Source of the DNA: an uncultured Acidobacteriota bacterium
GTDB taxonomy: Bacteria > Acidobacteriota > UBA6911
Assembly: GCA_963827655.1 (NCBI GenBank)
Contig: CAWHCF010000008.1
Coordinates: forward strand, 128,001-192,000
Direction of reading: 5' to 3'
DNA length: 64,000 nucleotides
Part shown: positions 2,531-22,247 of the stretch, one piece after another
Numbering within the stretch: the stretch's first letter is position 1
Layout of the letters: each line of letters opens with the position of its first letter
Notes under the pieces: model-generated
Told to the model about the DNA's origin: nothing
Seen by the model: the letters and a program-made list of their open reading frames with translations, nothing else
The model's database searches: none
Program-made: the position numbers and the translations under genes

Positions 2531-3428
2531 ATGTTTCGGAACTTGAAGGCACGTCATCGCTCGACTCGCCCGCCGGACAAGATCAAGCACCTCACTTTGA
2601 AGGTGCCGCGGTCCGCCGAGGTGGAGGAGTATGTTCCGCGGCTCTATTTCGAGGCTCGGATCGATTTAGGCGACGTTCGCTCGGGTTTTCGTGATACGTA
2701 CAGCTTGAACAAGGCCCTGGAGATCCATCCCATGGAAGGCGATGTGATGTGGACTCCGGACATGGCGGTGGCCGTCGATACCTCCCTGATTGAGCTGGGC
2801 TTGCCGCCAAGGGAAAAGTCACGGGAACTCCCCGACTACCTGGACGCAGCCCAGATATCGCGGCTTGAGACGCTCTTCCTGGCTTTCCTGATGCGCTATT
2901 TTGAAGTGCGCGTGTTCAGGAACTTCGCGCTCAATGTGTATTCGGGGCCCGGCGAGAGTTTGGAGGATTTCAAGCTGCGCTGCCTGGATATCCTCGGCGA
3001 GACCTTTCGCAGGGATCTGGATGCCTTGCATGAGGTGCTGGTCCGAAAACTGGAGCAGCTCCGCGAAAAGGACTTGCGAGAGAGCGCCGGCCTTACTTCA
3101 ACCCTTGATTTCGATATCGCGAAGATTGATTCCCAGGTGAAGAGCAGAATACATGACGTTTCGGAATCGATCACAAGCCTCTTCCTGAACACCGAATTGA
3201 GTCTCAATTCAAACCAGGACGCGCCTTCCTATCCCTCTCCGACGACGGAATTCGATCAGCGGCTGTCGCTCCTGGAAACCGAGACGCGGCATGCAAATCC
3301 AGCGTCTGACGGGTCTGTATCAGGACAGACTCCGGAACATCGACGAATACGTGGTGCATCCGAATCTGAAAGACATTCATCTGGTTCGAACTTGCATCTT
3401 GTGGATGCCGGCCGAGGCGATGTCATGA
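2531..3428 (+). CDS. Hypothetical protein (frameshift near 3290 makes it appear fused to mnmA)
   Basis: The +1 frame after ~3290 reads [44 protein letters not shown] and ends in an ATGA overlap with the mnmA start. Confidence 0.7.
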
Positions 3429-4552
3429 GCAGATTTCGAGTGGCCGTCGCGATGAGCGGAGGAGTCGATAGCTCGACGGCGGCTGCTATTCTCAAAGAGC
3501 AGGGATACGATCTGGTGGGATTCTCCATGCAGCTTTGGGATCAAAGAAGGAACGGCTCGGCGGGGGACGAGCACCGAGCGGGCCGTTGCTGTTCCCTCGA
3601 TGATCTCTATGACGCCCGCAGTGTCGCCGCCCGGCTCAAGTTTCCGTATTATGTGCTCAACTTTCAGGCAGAATTCGAGCAGGCAGTAGTGAGAAACTTC
3701 ATCGAGAGTTATCGAAGCGGCTACACGCCTTCTCCGTGTGTCCTATGCAACTCGCATCTGAAGTTTGATCACCTGGTGCAGATGGCCGACGAAGTCGAAG
3801 CCACCCACGTGGCAACCGGGCACTACGCGCGAGTGAAGCATGACCCCGAAACCGGCCGCTACTTGCTCTACAAGGGACGCGATCGTGATAAGGATCAATC
3901 CTATTTCTTGTTTGGACTGACGCAGAATCAACTGGGCCGGGCCATGTTCCCCCTGGGTGAGATGGAGAAGTGTCAGGTGCGACGAATCGCCCGAGAGCAC
4001 GGCCTGGAGGTAGCCGACAAGGCTGAGAGCCAGGAGATTTGTTTCATACCGGATGGAGACTATGCAGGCTTTATCGAGCGCCAATTCAGTGAGGTTTGCG
4101 GCGACGCTCAGGATTCCCATCCATTCAGGGAGGGGGAGATTGTCGACGAATCCGGGCAGATCATAGGAAAGCATCCGGGCATTCATCGCTTTACGATCGG
4201 CCAGCGGCGCGGATTGGGCGTTGCAAGTGGAAAACCGCTTTACGTCATAGATGTGATCCCTGCGGAAAACCGGATTGTTGCCGGCGAGCGCCGGCAACTG
4301 GCGAGAGCAAACTGCCGTGTCGAGCGCCCGAACTGGATATCGATTCCGTCCTTGGAAGCGCCGCTTCGAGCGGCGGCAAAAATTCGATCGCGTCATCCGG
4401 AAGCCCCTGCCACGATCAGGCCTTTAGGGAATGGAGATCTGGAAGTTGAGTTTGACTCCCCGCAGTTTGGTGTTTCGCCGGGTCAAGCCATCGTATTTTA
4501 TCAAGATGAGCAGGTCGTGGGCGGAGGCTGGATAGCTCGTCACCCCTCATGA
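3425..4552 (+). CDS. mnmA: tRNA 2-thiouridylase
   Basis: [11 protein letters not shown]-loop, [31 protein letters not shown] motifs. Confidence 0.96.
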
Positions 4553-5697
4553 GACGAATCCTCATTGTAGCTGGCGAGGCTTCCGCCGACAGATATGGTG
4601 CCCGTCTGGTTCGCAGGCTGCAGGCGAGACGCGGGGAAGAAGAGCTTCGTTTCTATGGCACGGGGGGTGATGAGATGCAGCGCGAAGGCGTGGAACTCCT
4701 CTGCCACATACGTGAACTTGCAAGCATCGGCCCCCGGGAAGCGCTGGCGAACTTAACGAAATACTTCGAAACTTTCCAGAATCTAGTCCGGGTCTCTCAA
4801 AAGGATCCGCCGGCGCTCGCCATACTACTCGACTTTCCCGAATTCAATCTGCGGCTGGCCAAGAAGTTGAAACGGGCAGGAATAAAGGTGGTCTACTACA
4901 TCAGCCCCCAGCTTTGGGCCTGGCGGAGCGGGCGAGTTCGCATCGTTCGCCGGTATGTTGACAAGATGCTGGTTATCCTTCCTTTCGAGGAGGAGTTCTA
5001 CCGGTTACGTGGAGTCGACGTCGAATTCGTAGGGCATCCATTGCTGGAGGATTTTAGTCCAAACCTCAATCGCGTGGCGTTTCTGCGCCGGCTCGGTTTC
5101 GATCCCGAGCGCACGACCGTTGCTCTGCTCCCGGGTAGCCGGCGCAAGGAAGTGGAGTATATGCTTCCTACGCTGCTGAAGACTGCGCAGCGTATCCTCC
5201 GACGAATACCTGCCCAGTTTCTAATCTCGGCGGCTCCCGCGCTGGAAAAACAACATCTGCTCCGGATTGTCCGGGAAGGGCTGCGCGATGATCTCGAGGC
5301 TCCCTTCTTCAAAATCGTGACCGTCGATGCTCGCGACATTCTCGCCAATTCGGATTTCGCCTTCGTCAAGAGCGGCACCTCCACGCTGGAGGCTGCGCTG
5401 GTGGGGACGCCATTCTTGATCATCTACAAAATCTCGCCCGCGAGCTGGTATTTGGGCAATATTCTCATTCGTACTCCCTTTAAGGGGCTGGTAAACTTGA
5501 TTGCGCGAGAAGAGATCGTACCGGAGTATTTGCAGCGCGATGCCACCCCGGAGTCCCTTTCCCATGCGGCGCTCGAGTATCTCCAGAATTCAGAGAAGGC
5601 TTCCAGGATGAAATCCCGCCTGTCGGGAATTCGTGAGAAGCTGGGAAAGTATTGCGCCTCGGAGAGAGCAGCCACGACGATTGAGGGTTACCTCTAG
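4549..5697 (+). CDS. lpxB: Lipid-A-disaccharide synthase
   Basis: AGEASAD, DFPEFN, PQLWAWR, VGHPL, LLPGSR, SGTSTLE motifs. Confidence 0.96.
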
Positions 5698-8504: not shown

Positions 8505-8741
8505 TTTCCGCTTATCCGGTTGATCGCCAAGAAGGTCAGAGAAACTATAAGACTAGGGGGTTCACTCTATATAGAATTCAATGGACGCGGCAGCAAAAAG
8601 TTGGTAGCTTTGGGCCCGTGCATTTGTTTCTTTAATCGTGGGTTAGGCCCGCCTGTTTCGACGCGGGTCGACTCAGCGGAAGGAAAGATCATTTCGGACG
8701 ACTGAACCAAGCACCGGCACAACGACGAACGGGGTGGATTG

Positions 8742-10709
8742 ATGTATACGGATCATATGTTCCGGGATGAGGAAGGGCGTACCTTCTTAAAACGCTGGAC
8801 AGGCTCGTCTTTTGTGTCTGGAATTTCAGATTTGACGTGGAAGGTTTTGCAGGCCGTGAACCGGCGGCTTCCGGAGGGGGAACTTCCCACCCCCCAATGG
8901 GCGCCGGGTAGAATGCTGAAAAGCTACGAACGGTCGGCGCCACCGTTAGGCTTTCCCAGATCCACAGACTCCCTGTGCCCTCGCTGTGTTCCTGAGGTGC
9001 GCAGCGCCATCATCAGGGGCGAAGCGGATCTCAGTATCCTTGCCGCTAACCATCCTGGAGAAATCAAGGCTGAGATCGTCGAGGAAGCCGGCCGCGTCCT
9101 CATGCGCAAGACTTGCCTGAAACATGGGGTATTTGAAGACGTCCTGTCGTCAAACGCCGACTTTAGCCGGCGCATCGAGGGCCTCTTCTTCGGCCGGGAC
9201 TTCAAGTGCGCCGAGGACGAGAAGATTCATCGCCACGGCAGTTCCACCATCAAATTTGGCCGCGGGGCGGTTCTCACTGTCGACCTCACGAATCGCTGTA
9301 ACATGATGTGCAATCCGTGTTTCATGGACGCCAATCAGGTAGGTTATGTCCACCAGCCTGAGTTTGAAGATATCAAGGCGATCCTCGACCGAGCCGTTTC
9401 CTTCAAGCCCCGCCGCCAGGTAATCGTCTTGTTTTCGGGGGGTGAGCCGACCCTCTCTCCGTTCTTCATCGATGCCGTAGCCTACGCCAAGAAGATCGGC
9501 TTCTACCGCATTATGGCCGCGACCAACGGGATCCGCTTTGCCCAGAGTGAAGAGTTCACGCGCGAAGCGCACGAGGCAGGACTCCACGGGGCATACCTCC
9601 AGTTCGACGGAGTCACCAACGAAAAGAATCAGCATCGGGGAGTGGGGAACCTTTTTGACGTGAAACTGCAGGCGGTCGAGAACATGGCCAAAGTGGGGAT
9701 GAAGACCACTCTGGTAACGACCATCGTGAATGGCGTCAATAATGATGGAATCGGCCCGATTGTCGATTTTGCCATTCGCAACATCGACAAGATTCAGACC
9801 ATTGCCTTTCAGCCCGTTTCTTTCACCGGTCGGGATGAGGAGATAGAGGACGAGCTAAGACAGGCGCAACGATACACCCTGGCTCAAATGGTTGAGGATC
9901 TGAAGGTTCAACTCAAGGCCGATTGGGAGCCGATGCGGGACTGGTTTCCGCTCTCGTCGTACAGTGCTTTCACGAGCGTGATGGATCTGCTCCAGGGAGC
10001 GGATGCACCGTGGGGCTGGAGCGCCTGTAACTGCCACCCGAACTGCGGCATATTTACGCTTCTGGTAGTCAATCGGCGAACGCGCGAGTGGATGCCTCTG
10101 TTCAAGTTTTTTGACTACGAGCAGTTTATTCGCGACGTGGCGGTGATTACGGACACGGCGCGAGGAAAGACGATGACCGCCGCTCAGCTGGCGCTTTCAA
10201 TCATGCGCAACTTCAAGGCCGACCGCGCGCCCAGAGGGTTTCCAATTTCGCAGATCGTGAACCTCTTCAGGCCCAGCTCCGAAAGATCGGATAGCGACCG
10301 GAACGACCGTATGAAGACCCGTTCGAAAGAGGACGACTGGCGCGTCCTTTGCGTGGAAGGCATGTGGTTTCAGGACCTCTGGACCTACGATTTCCGCCGC
10401 ACAGAAATGTGCGTCATTCCCTACGGAACGCAGGAAGGAGAAATCTCATTTTGCGCGTACAACACCGGCGTGGGCTGGCGCCAGATCATAGAGAATATGC
10501 ATCAGACCGCAACCCTGGCTGAGTGGCACAAGACCCAGGGACGACACGAAATCTTTGCCAAGGGAAAGTCTGTCCAATTGCCGACGACGGAGCATAGTCT
10601 GGTTCTTCCCGTATTGAACCAAAGCGAAAGCGGGTCAGGGTGCTGCGACAATCCAGGCCTACTGGAAAAGGACCGGGAACTTCTGGCAACTATCAGGACC
10701 AGCCGGTAG
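8742..10709 (+). CDS. Radical SAM protein, tetraether synthase (Tes/GDGT-MAS)-like
   Basis: SLCPRC..TCLKHG, CNMMCNPC, SGGEPT, ATNG, YLQFDG, FQPVSFTGR, HPNCG, MWFQD..C.IPY..FCAYN. Confidence 0.85.
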   Translation: MYTDHMFRDEEGRTFLKRWTGSSFVSGISDLTWKVLQAVNRRLPEGELPTPQWAPGRMLKSYERSAPPLGFPRSTDSLCPRCVPEVRSAIIRGEADLSILAANHPGEIKAEIVEEAGRVLMRKTCLKHGVFEDVLSSNADFSRRIEGLFFGRDFKCAEDEKIHRHGSSTIKFGRGAVLTVDLTNRCNMMCNPCFMDANQVGYVHQPEFEDIKAILDRAVSFKPRRQVIVLFSGGEPTLSPFFIDAVAYAKKIGFYRIMAATNGIRFAQSEEFTREAHEAGLHGAYLQFDGVTNEKNQHRGVGNLFDVKLQAVENMAKVGMKTTLVTTIVNGVNNDGIGPIVDFAIRNIDKIQTIAFQPVSFTGRDEEIEDELRQAQRYTLAQMVEDLKVQLKADWEPMRDWFPLSSYSAFTSVMDLLQGADAPWGWSACNCHPNCGIFTLLVVNRRTREWMPLFKFFDYEQFIRDVAVITDTARGKTMTAAQLALSIMRNFKADRAPRGFPISQIVNLFRPSSERSDSDRNDRMKTRSKEDDWRVLCVEGMWFQDLWTYDFRRTEMCVIPYGTQEGEISFCAYNTGVGWRQIIENMHQTATLAEWHKTQGRHEIFAKGKSVQLPTTEHSLVLPVLNQSESGSGCCDNPGLLEKDRELLATIRTSR

Positions 10710-10752: not shown

Positions 10753-10794
10753 AAAAACAGACGCAGGTTTTCGTGACCTGCGTCTTTTTGTTTT
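10753..10794 (+). terminator. Rho-independent terminator
   Basis: AGACGCAGGT-loop-ACCTGCGTCT followed by TTTTGTTTT. Confidence 0.85.
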
Positions 10795-10813
10795 ACCGAG
10801 AGAGTGAACAATA

Positions 10814-11869
10814 ATGGGCCATCGCGTTTCCGAGCTTGCGAGCTTGCTGGGGCTTCCTTTTCGTGGTGATGGAAATCAGCAGGTCGCAAGGGTGTCCAGC
10901 TGGGAGGAAGCCGATCGGTTCTCGTTAGTCTTCAGAGAGAGGGATGCGAGGCGTGGAGTTTTAATGGAACGCCAACCGGCGGCTTGCGTGATCGCCCCGC
11001 CGGACCTGGTTCCACCCGATTGGAACGCCATCCTTTCGGACCAGCCGAAACTGGACTTTGCCAGAGCCGCACAGCTGCTGTCCCCGCGCGTGACTGGTCA
11101 AGGTCTGCGGCATCCCACGGCCGTCATATCGCCCCATGCCACGCTGGCCCAGAATGTCGACATCGGTCCCTACGTCTCAGTAGGGGCCGGAACCAGCATA
11201 GGAAAAGGGGTCATCCTGAGCGCCGGAGTGATAGTGGGCGACGGGTGTATCCTGGGCGAGGAGTGCATACTCTATCCGCGCGTCGTCCTGTACGATGGCG
11301 TGCAGCTTGGTGATCGGGTGATCGTGCACTCCGGGGCGGTGCTCGGAAGCGACGGTTTCGGTTATGTTTTCGACGGAGGCGCGCAGGTCAAGTTTCCGCA
11401 GGTGGGAAAGCTCGTGATCGAGGATGATGTAGAGGTGGGGGCGAATACCACCATCGATAGAGGATCTCTCGGCACCACATGGATTGGAGCGGGAGCAAAG
11501 ATCGACAACCTGGTTCAGGTCGCCCACAACGTTCAGATCGGGCGGGCGGTCGTTATTGCCGCTCAGACAGGAATCTCGGGAAGCACCGTCATTGAAGACC
11601 TCGCCATTATCGGCGGACAGGTTGGTTTTGGGGATCACGCTCGCGTGCAGAAGGGGGCCGTGATCGGTTCCAAGGCAGGCGTTCTGCCGGGAAAAATTGT
11701 TCGCGGAGGGGAAGTGTACTGGGGTGTTCCGGTGCGCCCGCTGCGGGAATTCAAGCGACTGAACGCGCTTTTCGGCCGGCTGCCACAAATGAAAGCCGAA
11801 ATCGACTCGCTCAAACAAGCTCTGGATCAATTGAACCGGGCGTTCCAGAGGATTCAGGACGCGAGATAG
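10814..11869 (+). CDS. lpxD: UDP-3-O-acylglucosamine N-acyltransferase
   Basis: Hexapeptide repeats, GSDGFGY, GANTTIDRG, KIDNLVQVAHN. Confidence 0.95.
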   Translation: MGHRVSELASLLGLPFRGDGNQQVARVSSWEEADRFSLVFRERDARRGVLMERQPAACVIAPPDLVPPDWNAILSDQPKLDFARAAQLLSPRVTGQGLRHPTAVISPHATLAQNVDIGPYVSVGAGTSIGKGVILSAGVIVGDGCILGEECILYPRVVLYDGVQLGDRVIVHSGAVLGSDGFGYVFDGGAQVKFPQVGKLVIEDDVEVGANTTIDRGSLGTTWIGAGAKIDNLVQVAHNVQIGRAVVIAAQTGISGSTVIEDLAIIGGQVGFGDHARVQKGAVIGSKAGVLPGKIVRGGEVYWGVPVRPLREFKRLNALFGRLPQMKAEIDSLKQALDQLNRAFQRIQDAR

Positions 11870-15512: not shown

Positions 15513-16154
15513 ATGAGATGTTCACTGTGTAATCAGCGGAAAGGGAAGAGGCATTGCCCGGCCAAGAACGCAATGATCTGCGCCCAGTGTTGCGGCGAGA
15601 AGCGCATCCTGGAAATTGACTGCCCCGAGACCTGTCAATACCTTCAGATTGGACGTAGCCACGAAGCCAGTCAGGAGGGTGCGCGCCACTTATGGCGCGC
15701 GGATCCGATGAAACAGGGAAAGTATGATCGCGTCCTTTCGGAGTTTCCGGAGGTTGTTTCCCGGCTTCAGTTTCGTCTGGCCGAAGAGCGATGGGGATCG
15801 CGCGACTTGACCGACAGGGATGTCGCCGAAGCCTTGGGCCTGCTGCTTGAAACCTATCGGACAGAGGATCGAGGCGTCCTCTACGATCACGTTTCCAATG
15901 ATCTCAGGGTGGACTCGCTGCGGAGGCAACTCCGAGATTTGATGGAGGCACTCCGGAACCCTGAAGAATCCGGTGAAAAACGGCTTCTCTTGCGGGACGC
16001 TATCGACTGCCTGGAGTTCATGCACGACTGGGTGACGAGTCACATGAAGGATCGGCTGGCGTCGATGAGCTTTATTGATTTTCTAGCTCGACATGTTCCT
16101 CGTCCAAACCAGGTGAAGGATTCCGGATCTTCCATCATCATTCCGGGCCGTTGA
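15513..16154 (+). CDS. Hypothetical protein with Cys-rich N-terminal (zinc-binding) domain
   Basis: CxxC..C..CxxCC..CxxxC in the first ~45 aa. Confidence 0.75.
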   Translation: MRCSLCNQRKGKRHCPAKNAMICAQCCGEKRILEIDCPETCQYLQIGRSHEASQEGARHLWRADPMKQGKYDRVLSEFPEVVSRLQFRLAEERWGSRDLTDRDVAEALGLLLETYRTEDRGVLYDHVSNDLRVDSLRRQLRDLMEALRNPEESGEKRLLLRDAIDCLEFMHDWVTSHMKDRLASMSFIDFLARHVPRPNQVKDSGSSIIIPGR

Positions 16155-17334: not shown

Positions 17335-17494
17335 GGCACCCTCAGGATCGCGCCCCTTCGGGCTGCGGCCCGCAGGCCTGCTGGCTTTGTTGCTCGCTCC
17401 TCACGTACCGACCCGCGTACGCATCGTCGCTCGCGCCTCGCCAGCGTGCCTGGGGCCTGCCGCAGAACGTGAGCTTATTTCTGCGCGAACCCTA
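17335..17494 (-). mobile_element. Putative MITE-like structured remnant
   Basis: The minus strand begins TAGGGTTCGCGCAGAAATAA at the GT9 stop codon and contains several internal stems; no second terminal repeat was found. Confidence 0.4.
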
Positions 17495-18652
17495 AGAAGG
17501 GCTCTTGGCGTCTGCGCGTCGTTGGGATAAGCCTGCGGTCCGGGCCAGGATTCGCTCGCACGCTTCAAAAACTCTTTCGACCGAGATCTCCAGGATGCAC
17601 TTCGGCTCTCCAAAGGCCTCGCAGGTATATCCCGGGCAGGGCATGCATGGCAGATCGGACCGAACCAGTTCATAGTCCGTGCCCCACGGATGCCAGGCGA
17701 CAAAGTTCGAAGATCCCCACACCACGACGACCGGTTTCATGAGCGCCGCGGCTGCATGAGTCGCACCGCCGTCGTTTCCTACAAAAAGCCGGCAATCCTG
17801 AATGAGAGCGAAGAGCCCGGCGGCATCAAGATCCGACCAGTAGAAATGGCTCCTGGACGCGCTGTGCGCTATCTTGTGCAAGGTACGGGATTCGTGAGGG
17901 GCTCCTGTGAACACTACCGGCAGCCCGTACCGCTGCTCAAGCCGATCTCCCAGCTGGGCGAACTTTCCTTCTTCCCACTGCTTGGTAAAAAGGGTTGCGG
18001 TGGGCGCTATCAAGAAATAGTGGTCGAGCCTGATGCCGCTGCGCCGAAGCCGGTCTCGCACTCGATCGGTGGCGAGCGGATCGATCTGCAGAGTGCTGCG
18101 CGGTTTGTCCGAAACGGGAAGCCCGAGCCAGCGAAGAAGCGTCAGCTGGTGTTCAACTGTGTGAAGACGGCTTCGCTGCCAGACTTCCGAAGCCGGGGGG
18201 ATGCGGACGTTGTACGCCCATGCGGCACGATAGCTTGCGTGGCCGATCCGGAGCTTTGCTCCGCTTGCGAGCGTGAACAGCAGCGAGGTTGTGCCGCCAT
18301 GGAGGTTCAGGACCGCCCCGTACTGCCGCCGGCGAATCTCGAGGAGCGCTCGAATTCGATTCCAGCCGCCGGAAGAGTGGTTTCGCGGTCTGACGATCAG
18401 TGTTTCGTGAACAGCGGGATGGCGCGAGAAAACCGAAGCGTAAGGGGTCTCGCTGAGTACGTCCAGAGCTAAATCCGGGCGCCACCCGTGAAGCGACTCG
18501 ATCAGTGGAAGAGTGAGGATCGAATCTCCGAGTGAACGCAGGCGGATGAGGAGAATCCGAGGAATTTGCTGCAGTACTCCAGCTAAGTCAGCCGGATTGC
18601 GGATTGCGGATTGCGGATTGCGGATTAAACCATCGTGGCGAGCAAATTTCAT
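17492..18652 (-). CDS. Glycosyltransferase family 9 (LPS heptosyltransferase-like)
   Basis: ILLIRLRSLGD, KQW, VGNDGGATHAAAAL, PCMPC..C..C. Confidence 0.9.
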   Translation of the reverse strand: MKFARHDGLIRNPQSAIRNPADLAGVLQQIPRILLIRLRSLGDSILTLPLIESLHGWRPDLALDVLSETPYASVFSRHPAVHETLIVRPRNHSSGGWNRIRALLEIRRRQYGAVLNLHGGTTSLLFTLASGAKLRIGHASYRAAWAYNVRIPPASEVWQRSRLHTVEHQLTLLRWLGLPVSDKPRSTLQIDPLATDRVRDRLRRSGIRLDHYFLIAPTATLFTKQWEEGKFAQLGDRLEQRYGLPVVFTGAPHESRTLHKIAHSASRSHFYWSDLDAAGLFALIQDCRLFVGNDGGATHAAAALMKPVVVVWGSSNFVAWHPWGTDYELVRSDLPCMPCPGYTCEAFGEPKCILEISVERVFEACERILARTAGLSQRRADAKSPS

Positions 18653-18740
18653 CCAACCAAAACCAGTTTCTTCCTCACGCTGAAATCCGCGCAAACCGGT
18701 TTTTTCAATCCGCAATCCGCAATCCGCAATCTGCCAATCG
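18594..18740. repeat. Heptamer (GGATTGC/AATCCGC) inverted-array element
   Basis: (GGATTGC)4 at 18594-18621 and (AATCCGC)3+ at 18707-18734, about 80 bp apart. Confidence 0.88.
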
Positions 18741-18741
18741 A

Positions 18742-18919
18742 TTAAGCTGTCCTCCTCAATGGTAGCTTCGTCGACGAGCATGACGGGAATGTCATCGCGA
18801 ATGGGATATACGCGATGGCACTTTACGCACTTGAGCCCGGTTTCATTCGAAGTCAGACGCACCTCTTCTTTGCACACAGGGCACGCCAGAATCTCCAAGA
18901 GGTCTTTACTTATAGTCAT
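18742..18919 (-). CDS. Trm112/YcaR family protein (stop apparently lost by a 1-nt insertion)
   Basis: LLEILACPVCK..C..C.RVYPIRDDIPVML; removing one base at 18744-18745 restores TAA. Confidence 0.88.
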
Positions 18920-18943: not shown

Positions 18944-19542
18944 TCATGAGCGGCTCCCCAGCGCGAACTTGTTTTCGGTGCCGGTTAGAAGCCGGTGGAT
19001 GTTTTGGTGGTGTTTGGCCACAATCAGGGCCGCTCCGATGATGGCTGCCGCCAGAACCTCATTCGGCTCGCCACGCAAGTAAACGGCCAATGGGAATGAC
19101 GCCGCGGACGCAATCGACGCCAGTGAGACGTATCGAGTGAGCGCGGCGACCGCGATGAAAACCACGACAGTCAGCGCCTACCGCCTGAGGAGAGAGGGCC
19201 AGATAGGCCCCGCAGGCGGTGGCCACGCCCTTTCCCCCTTTGAATGAGAGGAAAACCGTAAACATGTGGCCCAGAATGGCGGCCACCGCCGCCATCGCTT
19301 GCCAGCCGGTATCACGCGTCAGCCAGGCTGCGGCGAGGACCGCGACATAACCCTTGGCCGCGTCCAATATGAGGGTCGCGATTCCGGCCCGCTCGGCTCT
19401 TGCGATAGACATTGGTTGCGCCGATATTACCGCTTCCGACCGAGCGGATATCGGTGCCGTGCGCGTGTTTCACCATGATATATCCGAACGGAATTGAGCC
19501 GAGGAGATACGCGATGATTAAGGCGCCAGAGCCAATGATCAT
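18944..19542 (-). CDS. plsY: Glycerol-3-phosphate acyltransferase (two apparent 1-nt insertions)
   Basis: [30 protein letters not shown] and KHHQNIHRL lie in three frames; shifts near 19389 and 19177. Confidence 0.92.
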
Positions 19543-20111
19543 AAGGAGGGTCTTGGTGATGCAAGATCCAGCCCGGCCAGCATCTTATAAATGGATCCGT
19601 GCGGAGTCAGGGTGCTCTGATACACACATACTTCGCGGGCTTCGAAGCTGCTCTCGTGATCGGCGCCGATCTTAATACAATCCAAGAGACGGTGTAAATT
19701 CCTTTTCCCCCGCACTCGTCCCAGAGTGAGGTGGGGTTGAAAGGGGCGCTGTTCGGCAGAGAACCCGGCTTGCGCACATGCCTGGTCGACTTCTTTATGC
19801 ACCAGCTTCAATCTTTCGACATCCCCTTCGATCCCGCACCAGATCACACGAGGGTTGCGCAGATCGGGAAATCCGCCGACTCCGTGCAACCGTAGAGAGA
19901 AGCACGATTGTGTCCCGAGGGCGCCGCGGAGCCGCTCGACGAGAAGCGGAATGGTACCCGGGTCTACTTCTCCCAGGAACTTCAGAGTCAGGTGGATATT
20001 CTGAATCAATGTCCAGCGCACATCGGCGCCCGAAGCCCGAAGAGGTTGCTGTAGCTGGTCGAGCAGTTTCTTGCAATGGTCCGGGATAGGTATGGCGATG
20101 AACGTCCTCAT
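19539..20111 (-). CDS. thpR: RNA 2',3'-cyclic phosphodiesterase
   Basis: MRTFIAI and two HxT motifs ([15 protein letters not shown]). Confidence 0.93.
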
Positions 20112-21362
20112 GGCTTCTGGCTTGCGGCGGGCGGAAGCAAGAACCCGCGCAGGCAGGTGAGAGAAAAGAAAGCAGCGCGTTCGCGGATTGCGTCGCGATC
20201 TCCCGGTATGATCCGTCGAAAGTGGACGGTACGTTCACTTCCCGAGAGCCCGACATAGACCAGCCCGACCGGTTTCTCGGCCGAGCCGCCGTCAGGTCCG
20301 GCAATGCCCGTCACGGAGAGGCCGACTCCTGCCTTGAACTTCTGCCGCACACCTCTGGCCAAAGCCTCCGCCACGGGCGCGCTTACTGCCCCGTGCGTAC
20401 GGATGAGGTCTTCCGGAACATCGCATAGACTGACTTTCGCGGCATTGCTGTAGCAGGTCAGGCCGCCCAGGAAGTATTCCGAACTTCCGGGTATCCGGGT
20501 GATCGAGCGTGCCAATCATCCCGCCGGTACACGATTCGGCGATTGCCAGGGACGTCGATGAGTCCCGGAGGAGCCGGCCGACGACCAGCTCGAGAGGTTC
20601 GTCGTGGGCGGTGAATACTGCGTCCCCCAGAGCCTCGGCGATTTTTCGGCTGAGTTCCTCCAAATCGCCGGCTTCCTCGCCCGGATTCAGCCATCGATAG
20701 AAACGCAATGCGATGTGCCCGGGAGCGGTCAGAATGGTAGTCTGAACTCTGGAATAAGTTGAATAAATCGGGGCAGCCAGCGAGTCGACCTCAGATTCAG
20801 TAAATCCGGAAACATTGAATGCCCTGTGAACCAGCCGCCGCCCCCCGCCGAGCTGCTGCGCCCTGGGCATGACGAGTTTCTCAAACATCGGTTTGATCTC
20901 GCGCGGAGGTCCTGGAAGGAGCACGAGGTGGACACCTCGCTCCTCAATCCACATTCCCGGCGCGGTTCCCCAGCGATTGGGCAAGACCTCGGCTCCTTCG
21001 ATTACTTCCGCCTGCCTCTCGTTGATCTTGGCCATGCGATAACCGCGACTGGCGAACCTCTGTCGCAGCTCTTCCAGAATCCCGTGGTCGAGGGCCAGCG
21101 TTCGGCCAAGGACCTTTGCCACGGCTGTTCGCGTGAGGTCGTCTTCCGTGGGACCCAGGCCACCGCTCAGAACGATCAGATCGGATCGCTTCAATGCCGA
21201 GTGGAGCACCGCGACGATGTCTCCCTCGTTGTCTCCCACGATGGTCTTGAGGTGGACGTCGAAGCCGGCCTCGTTGAGTCCCTGGGTGAGGAACAGGGAA
21301 TTAGTGTCGAGATGGTGAGGAGTCAACAGTTCGGAGCCAAGCGCAATGATCTCGGCCTTCAT
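20108..21362 (-). CDS. cinA: Competence/damage-inducible protein CinA (frameshift near 20512)
   Basis: GSELL..DTN, GGLGPTEDD, AESCTGG, then GAVS and TGIAGPDGG in the next frame. Confidence 0.93.
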
Positions 21363-21427
21363 TGGATGTGCCAATCCTGTGCGATGGAAGCTCAGGTTCG
21401 GGTTTCTTTGCGGCAGGTTCTAACAAA

Positions 21428-21480: not shown

Positions 21481-21949
21481 TTACCCGTGGAGCAGCCAAT
21501 TTACAAGGTGGACGACGGCGCCTGCGTACACTCCCGCCAGCAGATCGTCAGCCATAACGCCCACGCCATTGGGGAGCCGTTCGAGCCTCCGGATGGGATA
21601 GGGTTTCCAGATATCAAAAGCGCGAAACAGTGCCGTCGCGAGCACGAGATTGGTCATACTGACCGGCACCAGGAACAAGGCGACCAGTTGGCCCGCAATT
21701 TCGTCAATGACCACGAACTGCGGGATCCTCGATTTTCTGCTTGCGCGCAACCTCGGCGGAAGCAAGAGTGCCGGCGGTCGCTATGAGGCCGATCGCGCTC
21801 AGGTGCAACTCCGGGACGATTCGGTTTGAAACTTGATGAACCAGGAAGAAGGCGAGCGTAGTCGCCAGCGAAGCATAAGTGCCTGGGGCGCCCGGGATGA
21901 GGCCCAGGTAGCATCCACTGGCAAGGAACAGCGAGAGCCGTTCCTTCAC
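21481..21949 (-). CDS. pgpA: Phosphatidylglycerophosphatase A (frameshift near 21722)
   Basis: APGTYAS, DP/VVIDEIAG, FRAFDIWKP, GVMADDLLAG. Confidence 0.92.
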
Positions 21950-22052
21950 GTTATTATTCGAGGTCTTCCGTGGTCGTACGTTGCGGCACGTGGCTTTCTC
22001 GCCGCAACGATCCGACGGCGTCAGGAGTCGTCGGTTCTGGCTAGGCGCGGCA

Positions 22053-22247
22053 CTAAGAACCCGTGGCGTCTTTAGAGGTGTCCGGCAGACCGTCTTCCTC
22101 TTCCTCCTGCGTTCGGGTGGGAACGCGATAGGCTTCGGAAGCCCACTTTCCCAGGTCAATCAGCTTGCAGCGCTCGCTGCAAAAGGGGCGAAAGGGATTG
22201 TCTTCGAACGACGTCTCTCTGTGACATTGGGGACATTGGACAATCAT
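22053..22247 (-). CDS. yacG: DNA gyrase inhibitor
   Basis: CPQC..RPFCSERCKLIDLGKWA. Confidence 0.95.
   Translation of the reverse strand: MIVQCPQCHRETSFEDNPFRPFCSERCKLIDLGKWASEAYRVPTRTQEEEEDGLPDTSKDATGS

Follow-up and report, generated by a model that had tools for sequence, protein, structure and literature searches.

Which reaction would a protein resembling archaeal tetraether synthase catalyse in a bacterium, where its gene lies among lipid A genes and the ligands of one archaeal iron–sulphur cluster are missing from it? The question is raised by a radical S-adenosylmethionine (SAM) gene in a stretch of 64,000 nucleotides (hereafter the window) from contig CAWHCF010000008.1 of an uncultured Acidobacteriota bacterium (assembly GCA_963827655.1). 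An original prediction, made from the DNA letters, had read its product (hereafter P0001) as a homolog of Tes/GDGT-MAS, the archaeal tetraether synthase, of which MJ0619 is the structurally solved example. Soil temperature and pH proxies in wide use rest on brGDGTs (branched glycerol dialkyl glycerol tetraethers) and iso-diabolic acid, and acidobacterial Tes homologs have been published candidates for the synthesis of these lipids since 2022 but are still unproven. Our results suggest that (i) P0001 belongs to a bacterial sister clade of canonical Tes; (ii) the acidobacterial Tes-like genes form distinct paralog clades, all apparently without one of the archaeal clusters; (iii) one of these clades (type A, which includes P0001) is tied to a dedicated lipid A acyltransferase, a paralog of LpxD; and (iv) the most likely function of type A, which we favour with moderate confidence, would be tail-to-tail C–C coupling of iso-branched lipid chains. 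The division into type A and a second clade, type B, and the type A/LpxD-paralog module are new here: passages on acidobacterial Tes in earlier papers treat 'Tes homologs' as one class and contain no cluster loss, clade split or lpxD link. The gene and the parts of its product that carry the argument are listed below by window position.

8742..10709, plus strand: Tes-like radical SAM gene, type A (P0001); intact open reading frame (ORF) of 655 amino acids
8976..9125, plus strand: rubredoxin-like/zinc-ribbon metal site C79-x2-C82...C125-x2-H128 (PF23545 Zn_ribbon_HMPTM, residues 72–136)
9183..9266, plus strand: stretch aligned to the MJ0619 N-terminal auxiliary-cluster motif (pairwise alignment with 7tol_A; columns of 26 representatives)
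9297..9320, plus strand: radical SAM motif C186-x3-C190-x2-C193 (invariant in 42 sequences; PF04055, residues 182–343, 73.9 bits)
10026..10463, plus strand: C-terminal auxiliary-cluster region with C435, M541, C557 and C571 (each at least 90% conserved in the 42 sequences)
10638..10646, plus strand: G-C634-C635 in the C-terminal tail (type A-specific)

The best-scoring NCBIfam family of P0001 is Tes (NF045702) with 301.6 bits, which does not reach the curated equivalog cut-off of 450 bits; the second Tes-like protein of the same genome scores 323.4 bits and 17 canonical Tes representatives score 462–645 bits. TrsS (NF045646) is second with 199.3 bits against a cut-off of 490, and this match covers the radical SAM core and the region preceding it (residues 107–392) but does not reach the C-terminal cluster domain. 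NirJ1 (78.4 bits, cut-off 650), NirJ2 (78.1 bits, cut-off 500) and MoaA (55.7 bits, cut-off 231) all match in the core only, within residues 149–389. Pfam assigns PF23545 (the HMPTM N-terminal zinc ribbon, 46.1 bits) and PF04055, and no cobalamin-binding or methyltransferase domain was found in the Pfam scan. Among solved structures, phmmer ranks MJ0619 first (7tol_A, E 7.4e-63, query residues 108–597), followed by SkfB (1.3e-5). Built from an alignment of 42 sequences, an AlphaFold2 model has a mean predicted local distance difference test score (pLDDT) of 83.4 and a predicted template modelling score of 0.86; Foldseek aligns it with 7TOM and 7TOL at E 1e-37 and a target-normalised template modelling score (TM) of 0.87–0.88 over ∼550 columns, whereas MoaA, viperin, HydE and SkfB align over the radical SAM core only (∼250 columns, TM 0.46–0.66). 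Since the Tes score of 301.6 bits compares with 55.7–78.4 bits, and a TM of 0.88 to 7TOL with 0.54 to MoaA, P0001 is not a MoaA/NirJ-type protein. Such a grouping, named beforehand as the outcome that would speak against a Tes homolog, is excluded by both family scores and fold, and the homology claim of the original prediction is borne out.

All motifs that had been listed for the protein are present: CPRC (residues 79–82), CLKH (125–128), CNMMCNPC (186–193), YLQFDG (285–290), FQPVSFTGR (356–364), CNCHPNCG (429–436), GMWFQD (540–545), CVIPY (557–561), FCAYN (570–574) and GCC (633–635). The 15 cysteines are at positions 79, 82, 125, 156, 186, 190, 193, 429, 431, 435, 537, 557, 571, 634 and 635. 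As described for MJ0619 by Lloyd et al. (2022, PMC9433317), the archaeal enzyme has an iron bound in a rubredoxin-like site (C9X2C12X20C33X2H36), an N-terminal [4Fe-4S] cluster at the surface, ligated by C73, C77, C80 and a conserved histidine, the radical SAM cluster, and a C-terminal [4Fe-4S] cluster with a labile Met439 ligand; while the reaction proceeds, the substrate carbon is held on a sulfide of this last cluster. The 7tol_A chain as deposited is offset by 20 from this published numbering (i.e. chain C53/H56 = C33/H36).

The homology of P0001 to MJ0619 extends from the rubredoxin domain as far as the C-terminus, with 27% identity when the structures are aligned, and P0001 shares with MJ0619 the rubredoxin CX2C...CX2H, the CX3CX2C motif, the C-terminal cysteine triad and the equivalent of Met439. 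In the 42 sequences, C82, C125 and H128 of the rubredoxin-like site are invariant and C79 is conserved in at least 90%. M541 aligns to chain residue M459, which is Met439 of MJ0619, and from their conservation we infer that C435, C557 and C571 are the ligands of the C-terminal cluster. Unlike MJ0619, P0001 lacks the Cys3-His ligands of the N-terminal [4Fe-4S] cluster: the archaeal CPYDCGLCPNH aligns with FKCAEDEKIHRHGSS, and because this stretch has a single cysteine (C156), itself non-conserved, the ligands are absent. The missing auxiliary motif before the SAM motif had thus been read correctly, in a part of the structural model where confidence is low (pLDDT 51–66). The predicted cofactors are therefore two clusters and one iron, compared with three clusters and one iron in the archaeal enzyme. 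P0001 also differs in an N-terminus ∼70 residues longer, with a confidently modelled helix at residues 23–42, and in a C-terminus ∼60 residues longer, with the Cys-Cys pair.

The 'extra Cys' of CNCHPNC, which had been noted, is indeed present; its interpretation as a new ligand set is ruled out, as C429 and C431 are non-conserved and two canonical Tes representatives, P0162 and P0173, have CxCHPxCG too. The tail pair, in contrast, is group-specific: CC occurs in 13 of the 17 type A rows and at least one cysteine in all 17, compared with none in the two type B rows, and the tail is of low confidence in the model. A conserved N-terminal extension beginning MYTDH is likewise specific to type A. 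The form of the tail (CC, then 1–4 residues, then NP) resembles that of the 'CUAEP/CCAEP-tail radical SAM (seleno)protein' family NF040546.

We then asked how far the cluster loss extends. Among 1.84 billion cluster representatives, 6808 matched at E ≤ 1e-3 and 467 at E ≤ 1e-30; 32 near full-length representatives among those listed were scanned against NCBIfam, and 26 rows, query included, were aligned. The N-terminal cluster motif is missing in all seven Tes-like rows (P0001, P0122, P0125, P0126, P0127, P0130 and P0141), i.e. those that cluster with P0001 and do not reach the Tes cut-off. By comparison, 16 of the 19 canonical or near-canonical Tes rows keep the Cys3-His set, while P0261 and P0269 have two of the cysteines and P0207 has none. 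IQ-TREE separates the seven Tes-like rows from the 19 canonical rows with a Shimodaira–Hasegawa-like approximate likelihood ratio (SH-aLRT) of 100, and in a 52-row tree rooted on nine canonical Tes sequences the bacterial Tes-like clade (43 rows) again stands apart (SH-aLRT 100); both are quick searches without bootstraps, and long branches are flagged among the canonical rows. Judged from these alignments and trees, loss of the N-terminal cluster marks the whole bacterial sister clade of canonical Tes. The 'altered Fe–S architecture' of the original prediction therefore stands as regards the absent ligands, and falls as a peculiarity of this gene.

Two further observations concern cluster cysteines elsewhere. 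The divergent Tes-like rows P0126, P0130 and P0141 have lost cysteines of the C-terminal cluster as well, and P0207 scores 584 bits on the Tes model, well above its cut-off, with no N-terminal cluster cysteine at all. As each of these has lost cluster cysteines, cluster loss appears to recur in the superfamily.

Two to four paralog groups of Tes-like genes coexist in Acidobacteriota, and the 52-row tree resolves type A (19 rows, SH-aLRT 99), type B (14 rows, SH-aLRT 100), six intermediate rows and the basal P0127. The source genome (8.18 Mb, 53 contigs, 90% complete) has two Tes-like genes, P0001 of type A and P0122 of type B (contig 43, 651 amino acids), which are 51% identical and both without the N-terminal cluster motif. 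When 301 evenly drawn Acidobacteriota genomes were searched with P0001, 177 had matches at E ≤ 1e-40 (174 of 298 if three genomes flagged unpublished, G023, G048 and G146, are set aside). Type A, defined as matches of at least 69% identity, is present in 23 of the 301 genomes, namely all seven of family f1 (the family of the source genome G000, which is included) and 16 of family f37. All 23 list a second match, which is 51–55% identical (type B) where tabulated. The other positive genomes have mostly one gene at 50–59% identity, while in some every match is distant (E 1e-80 to 1e-100). Two type A matches contain an in-frame stop (G209, TAG; G281, TGA).

At finer scale, the best 80 genome loci (68–85% identity) are by title 76 Acidobacteriota (Terriglobia, Ca. 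Versatilivorator, Acidiferrales, Blastocatellia and Pyrinomonadaceae), two Acidimicrobiia and two 'uncultured bacterium'. One of them (L025) belongs to the cultured Pyrinomonas methylaliphatogenes K22, whose type A ortholog is 75% identical to P0001; genome G143, in which the lpxD coordinates coincide with those of K22, holds a type B gene too. Type A and type B are thus defined coupling candidates that are both present in one cultured organism. In the two loci titled Acidimicrobiia, i.e. Actinomycetota (L015 and L021), a type A gene of 81% identity is directly followed by the acidobacterial lpxD paralog, which suggests mis-binned or mislabelled contigs of metagenome-assembled genomes.

These frequencies differ from the published picture. 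Zeng et al. (2022, PMC8941075) listed 456 Tes homologs from bacteria, acidobacterial ones among them, and suggested that they take part in making brGDGTs. In S. usitatus, brGDGTs were described by Chen et al. (2022, 10.1101/2022.04.07.487437) and Halamka et al. (2022, PMC10087280), according to whom the condensation of iso-C15 diethers may be due to one or both Tes homologs of this organism. P0001 is of the same superfamily and phylum as these homologs and has the same proposed iso-C15 condensing role. In the text of Sahonero-Canavesi et al. (2022, PMC13159169), by contrast, Tes homologs are found under stringent criteria in only three of 14 iso-diabolic acid producers, they are argued to be too scarce in the phylum to account for the coupling, and an alternative pathway is suggested; its Table S21 enters no Tes homolog for P. 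methylaliphatogenes. Since K22 holds a type A gene and G143 a type B gene, 'three of 14' is probably a threshold effect, and Tes-like genes, present in 177 of the 301 sampled genomes as well as in P. methylaliphatogenes, appear to be common rather than rare. A 2026 review, in its part on bacterial Tes homologs, adds nothing to this.

From the homology, fold and ligand pattern observed above we infer the chemistry and substrate as follows. P0001 would be a cytoplasmic or peripheral radical SAM enzyme of the bacterial sister clade of archaeal Tes/GDGT-MAS. By analogy with MJ0619, its CX3CX2C [4Fe-4S] cluster would split SAM to give a 5′-deoxyadenosyl radical, which would take a hydrogen from an iso-branched chain, at its terminal carbon, the chain lying in a hydrophobic pocket. 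The C-terminal [4Fe-4S] cluster (C435, C557 and C571, with M541 as labile fourth ligand) could then hold the substrate radical on one of its sulfides until a second chain, radicalised by a second SAM, attacks the parked carbon and forms the tail-to-tail C–C bond. Coupling of two iso-C15 chains would give a C30 membrane-spanning chain of iso-diabolic type. As the N-terminal surface cluster is missing and the rubredoxin-like iron is kept, electrons would reach the catalytic clusters by another route. In MJ0619 the host supplies isoprenoid diethers; the host of P0001 would instead offer iso-branched fatty lipids in ester or ether linkage.

Tes-type chemistry is most likely because both fold and ligand set are conserved in alignment and model: the rubredoxin and radical SAM residues, the C-terminal residues and the methionine are invariant or at least 90% conserved in the 42 Tes and Tes-like sequences. 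Consistent with it, the gene sits among envelope-lipid genes, and an ortholog is present in K22, an obligate aerobe in which, according to its genome paper, iso-diabolic acid and glycerol ethers make up >40% of the membrane lipids. The other known bacterial coupling enzyme, Mss of Thermotoga maritima and Thermoanaerobacter ethanolicus, likewise couples acyl tails by radical SAM chemistry into diabolic or iso-diabolic acid (PMC13159169), the reaction type proposed here for P0001. That paper, however, assigns Mss to another radical SAM family. The activity of Mss is confined to anaerobic conditions, and type A is found in K22, an obligate aerobe. By the paper's own claim there is no Mss in Acidobacteria and no Tes homolog in the Mss organisms.

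Several points weigh against coupling as the function of type A. Radical SAM paralogs frequently alter their chemistry. P0001 lies below the Tes cut-off and outside the canonical clade, and it lacks the N-terminal auxiliary cluster. Type A is present in just 23 of the 301 sampled genomes, each of which also has type B, while iso-diabolic acid is reported from nearly all strains of subdivisions (SD) 1, 3, 4 and 6 (PMC13159169); because of this mismatch, type A is not the general iso-diabolic acid synthase. Finally, the relevant passages of a 2025 paper state that no bacterial Tes homolog has been confirmed experimentally. Since type A is restricted and always stands beside type B, type B would be the general enzyme and type A a specialist, whose substrate may be more special than that of general iso-diabolic acid synthesis.

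What this substrate could be is suggested by the gene neighbourhood. The neighbouring features are:

4549-5697, plus strand: lpxB (TIGR00215, 291 bits, above the NCBIfam cut-off), the sole copy in the genome
7695..8504, plus strand: membrane methyltransferase of PEMT/ICMT type (PF04191, 34.5 bits), directly upstream of the Tes-like gene
10759-10785, plus strand: terminator-like hairpin (10759..10795 with its T run), between the Tes-like gene and lpxD
10814-11869, plus strand: lpxD paralog (LpxD-T; TIGR01853, ∼316.7 bits, above the NCBIfam cut-off)
∼18944-19542, minus strand: plsY, split over three overlapping ORFs
∼21481-22159, minus strand: pgpA, split over two ORFs

The plus-strand order is lpxB, an M1-peptidase/tetratricopeptide repeat protein, the methyltransferase, the Tes-like gene, the hairpin with its T run, lpxD and an ABC-2 transporter, beyond which lies an hldE kinase and, farther still, a heptosyltransferase gene on the minus strand. 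The lipid-gene context of the original prediction is hence confirmed for lpxB and lpxD; plsY and pgpA, which it had counted in, are 8–11 kb from the Tes-like gene, on the opposite strand and frame-split. They were rejected as meaningful neighbours and are probably irrelevant to the Tes-like gene, the link that counts being lpxD and lpxB.

We consider it possible, though unlikely, that type A couples acyl chains placed by its partner LpxD paralog on UDP-acyl-glucosamine, lipid X or lipid IVA. This would be a sub-case of the coupling chemistry above, in which two lipid A chains, or lipid A and another lipid, are cross-linked into a macrocyclic or outer-membrane-spanning lipid A with an iso-diabolic-type chain. 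The association with lpxD argues for it. Counted at ≥40% identity and ≥50% coverage, lpxD lies within 2.5 kb of the Tes-like gene at 45 of the 80 type A loci (in 15 it is downstream and co-directional, in 30 upstream and divergent) and within 6 kb at nine more, and lpxB is inside the flanks at 29. At the remaining 26 loci, several of which have short flanks, lpxD was not found within 6 kb, which counts against the idea. For type B and the intermediate group, 19 loci were compared (12 of type B, each drawn from among different families, six intermediate ones and the type B locus of the source genome), and at none of them was lpxA, lpxB, lpxD or lptD found within 6 kb. In the even sample, 14 of the 23 type A genes are within 2.5 kb of the LpxD paralog (seven of seven in f1, seven of 16 in f37). 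The K22 locus reads lptD(-), lpxB(+), lpxD(-), lpxA(-), Tes-like(+), and there (L025 1-7992) a second lpxA-lpxD pair is transcribed divergently to the Tes-like gene; K22 has its remaining copies of lpxA and lpxD elsewhere in the genome. In four of four genomes checked, lpxB is single-copy and lies inside the type A locus.

The LpxD paralog itself follows type A closely. LpxD-T is the second, lower-scoring lpxD of the source genome; the other (contig 29, 348 bits) lies between murJ and the gene of a phosphoenolpyruvate-utilising enzyme. LpxD-T aligns over its full length with the LpxD of C. trachomatis (2iu8, E 1e-58), and the VAHNV histidine motif is retained in it. The two-copy pattern was also found in K22 and in three of four other type A genomes checked (the second copy of G305 is partial and below the cut-off). 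In a tree of 28 lpxD rows, one clade (SH-aLRT 100) unites the ten type A-adjacent copies, from both classes. It stands apart from a housekeeping clade (12 rows, SH-aLRT 99), to which the remaining copies of these genomes belong, and likewise from the second lpxD of four genomes that have type B only (SH-aLRT 100). When the window lpxD served as query (E ≤ 1e-75), 45 of the 301 genomes matched: all 23 with type A and 22 of the 278 others. Because type A genomes come essentially from two lineages, these numbers reflect few independent events and do not amount to a statistical test.

Having a second lpxD does not in itself distinguish type A genomes: two copies occur in all 23 of them and, by hand count, in ∼76 of the 278 others. 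Among these others are all 22 genomes of the same class that lie outside f1, and type A is absent from each of the 22.

The chemistry of acidobacterial lipids is also relevant to cross-linked lipid A. Release by hydrolysis but not by solvent extraction is how acyl chains bound to lipopolysaccharide (LPS) behave. Acidobacterial iso-diabolic acid is described as freed only by cell hydrolysis and not by Bligh-Dyer extraction (PMC5462960). The same source, however, reports non-extractable iso-diabolic acid for SD1 and SD3 strains too, and most of the sampled genomes of the source class have type B only. Further points against the lipid A substrate are that its support consists of gene neighbourhood and co-occurrence in essentially two related lineages (f1 and f37), that the terminator-like hairpin stands between the Tes-like gene and lpxD, and that a literature search, with most subscription journals outside it, found no acidobacterial lipid A structure. 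The same full-text search found no work joining lpxD and tetraether and nothing relevant on iso-diabolic acid with lipid A, LPS or the outer membrane.

In its full form, it is rather doubtful that type A and the co-inherited LpxD paralog are a two-gene module making cross-linked lipid A with iso-branched chains tail to tail. Equally doubtful is the more detailed version, in which the product would be a macrocycle or an outer-membrane-spanning chain and the Cys-Cys tail or the rubredoxin-like site would replace the electron delivery of the lost cluster. If true, the module would provide the first case of lipid A being remodelled by radical SAM chemistry, and part of the 'non-extractable' iso-diabolic acid pool of Acidobacteriota would be explained.

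A further alternative, for which we see a slim chance, keeps the fold and changes the reaction: type B would be the true tail-to-tail synthase, and type A would perform other radical chemistry on lipid (e.g. intramolecular macrocyclisation, a Gms-like mid-chain cross-link, ring formation or methylation of brGDGT-type chains). Since the two to four paralog groups of the phylum coexist and type A is always accompanied by type B, some division of labour is suggested; MJ0619 itself yields both macrocyclic archaeol and GDGT (PMC9433317), and the N-terminal extension and Cys-Cys tail of type A hint at changed partner or substrate handling. However, every residue of the Tes mechanism is kept, including the methionine and the three C-terminal cysteines, the Pfam scan gave neither of the domains mentioned above, and the literature, where it treats Grs and Gms, names them as separate radical SAM proteins. 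It is very improbable that the substrate is not a lipid, as in the pterin C-methylation once assigned to MJ0619 (hence the annotation '7,8-dihydro-6-hydroxymethylpterin dimethyltransferase') or a peptide or cofactor modification. In favour of such a substrate, some database copies bear the pterin methyltransferase name, TrsS, a radical SAM (seleno)protein, is the second-best family, and a pterin-4a-carbinolamine dehydratase gene adjoins type B at two of 12 loci. Against it, these two loci are from related genomes of one class, type A is surrounded by lipid A and not pterin genes, and for MJ0619 lipid binding and coupling were shown while pterin activity could not be corroborated (PMC9433317).

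No conserved lipid neighbour was found among the 12 type B loci, where neighbours are heterogeneous. Two kinds of neighbour recur. The dehydratase gene just mentioned is at L090 5364-5747 and L092 7944-8309, and a gene for an NfuA-like Fe–S carrier (Fe-S_biosyn and NifU domains) adjoins type B at L089 8120-8716 and L090 8096-8689; all these neighbours come from related genomes of one class. Ger or a modified PlsA, the route to ether bonds that had been brought up together with the coupling role, was not found either: no PF09989 (DUF2229) match occurs in the 8.18-Mb, 90% complete genome, although the T. maritima control matched, and elb genes were not searched.

The Tes-like gene is real, with >8000 relatives in the database and 76–99% identity among the best 120 of these. 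Orthologs across two acidobacterial classes are 69–87% identical, which points to strong purifying selection. The ORF (8739..10709, plus strand) offers two starts, TTG at 8739 and ATG at 8742, the latter giving the 655 amino acids; the MYTDH N-terminus is common to orthologs, and GGTGGA stands directly 5′ of the start. Contigs from four soil RNA libraries (three studies) span the gene at 92–99% likeness. They are a weak hint of expression, with DNA carry-over possible, and contain no transcript ends and nothing on co-transcription of the Tes-like gene with lpxD.

The hairpin at 10759-10785 has an 11-bp stem with six G-C pairs followed by TTTTGTTTT, and lies 50 nt past the Tes-like stop. An own terminator had been proposed; the hairpin and T run are there, although the scan found three such sites against a shuffle mean of 2.9. 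As this is no excess, only position suggests a terminator. The upstream methyltransferase probably starts later than 7695. It matches the LmtA-like family TIGR04571 weakly (61.3 bits, cut-off 325) and is kept at four of the 80 type A loci.

Further along the window, the cinA-like gene between plsY and pgpA (19795-21374, minus strand, 360 amino acids) matches only ∼290 of 414 profile positions and is followed by a 169-residue ORF on the same strand, so that it may also be split. This cluster of apparent frameshifts in plsY, pgpA and perhaps the cinA-like gene reflects either assembly indels or real decay; the Tes-like gene is intact. At 15513-16154 (plus strand) lies a 213-residue protein without Pfam or NCBIfam family, whose N-terminus is rich in cysteine (C3, C6, C15, C23, C26, C27, C37 and C41). 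Its homologs occur a few genes past lpxD at five of the 80 type A loci and adjoin type B genes, at 32–37% identity, at three of 12 loci (L089, L090 and L092), and it could be a candidate partner protein. Upstream, at 2531-4552 (plus strand), the match to MnmA (tRNA 2-thiouridine synthase) is limited to residues 303–668 of a 673-residue ORF, of which the N-terminal ∼300 residues are unassigned. Finally, the minus-strand gene at 17492-18919 encodes a heptosyltransferase III-like protein (residues 121–430) with an N-terminal match to a Trm112/YcaR-like zinc ribbon (residues 5–53).

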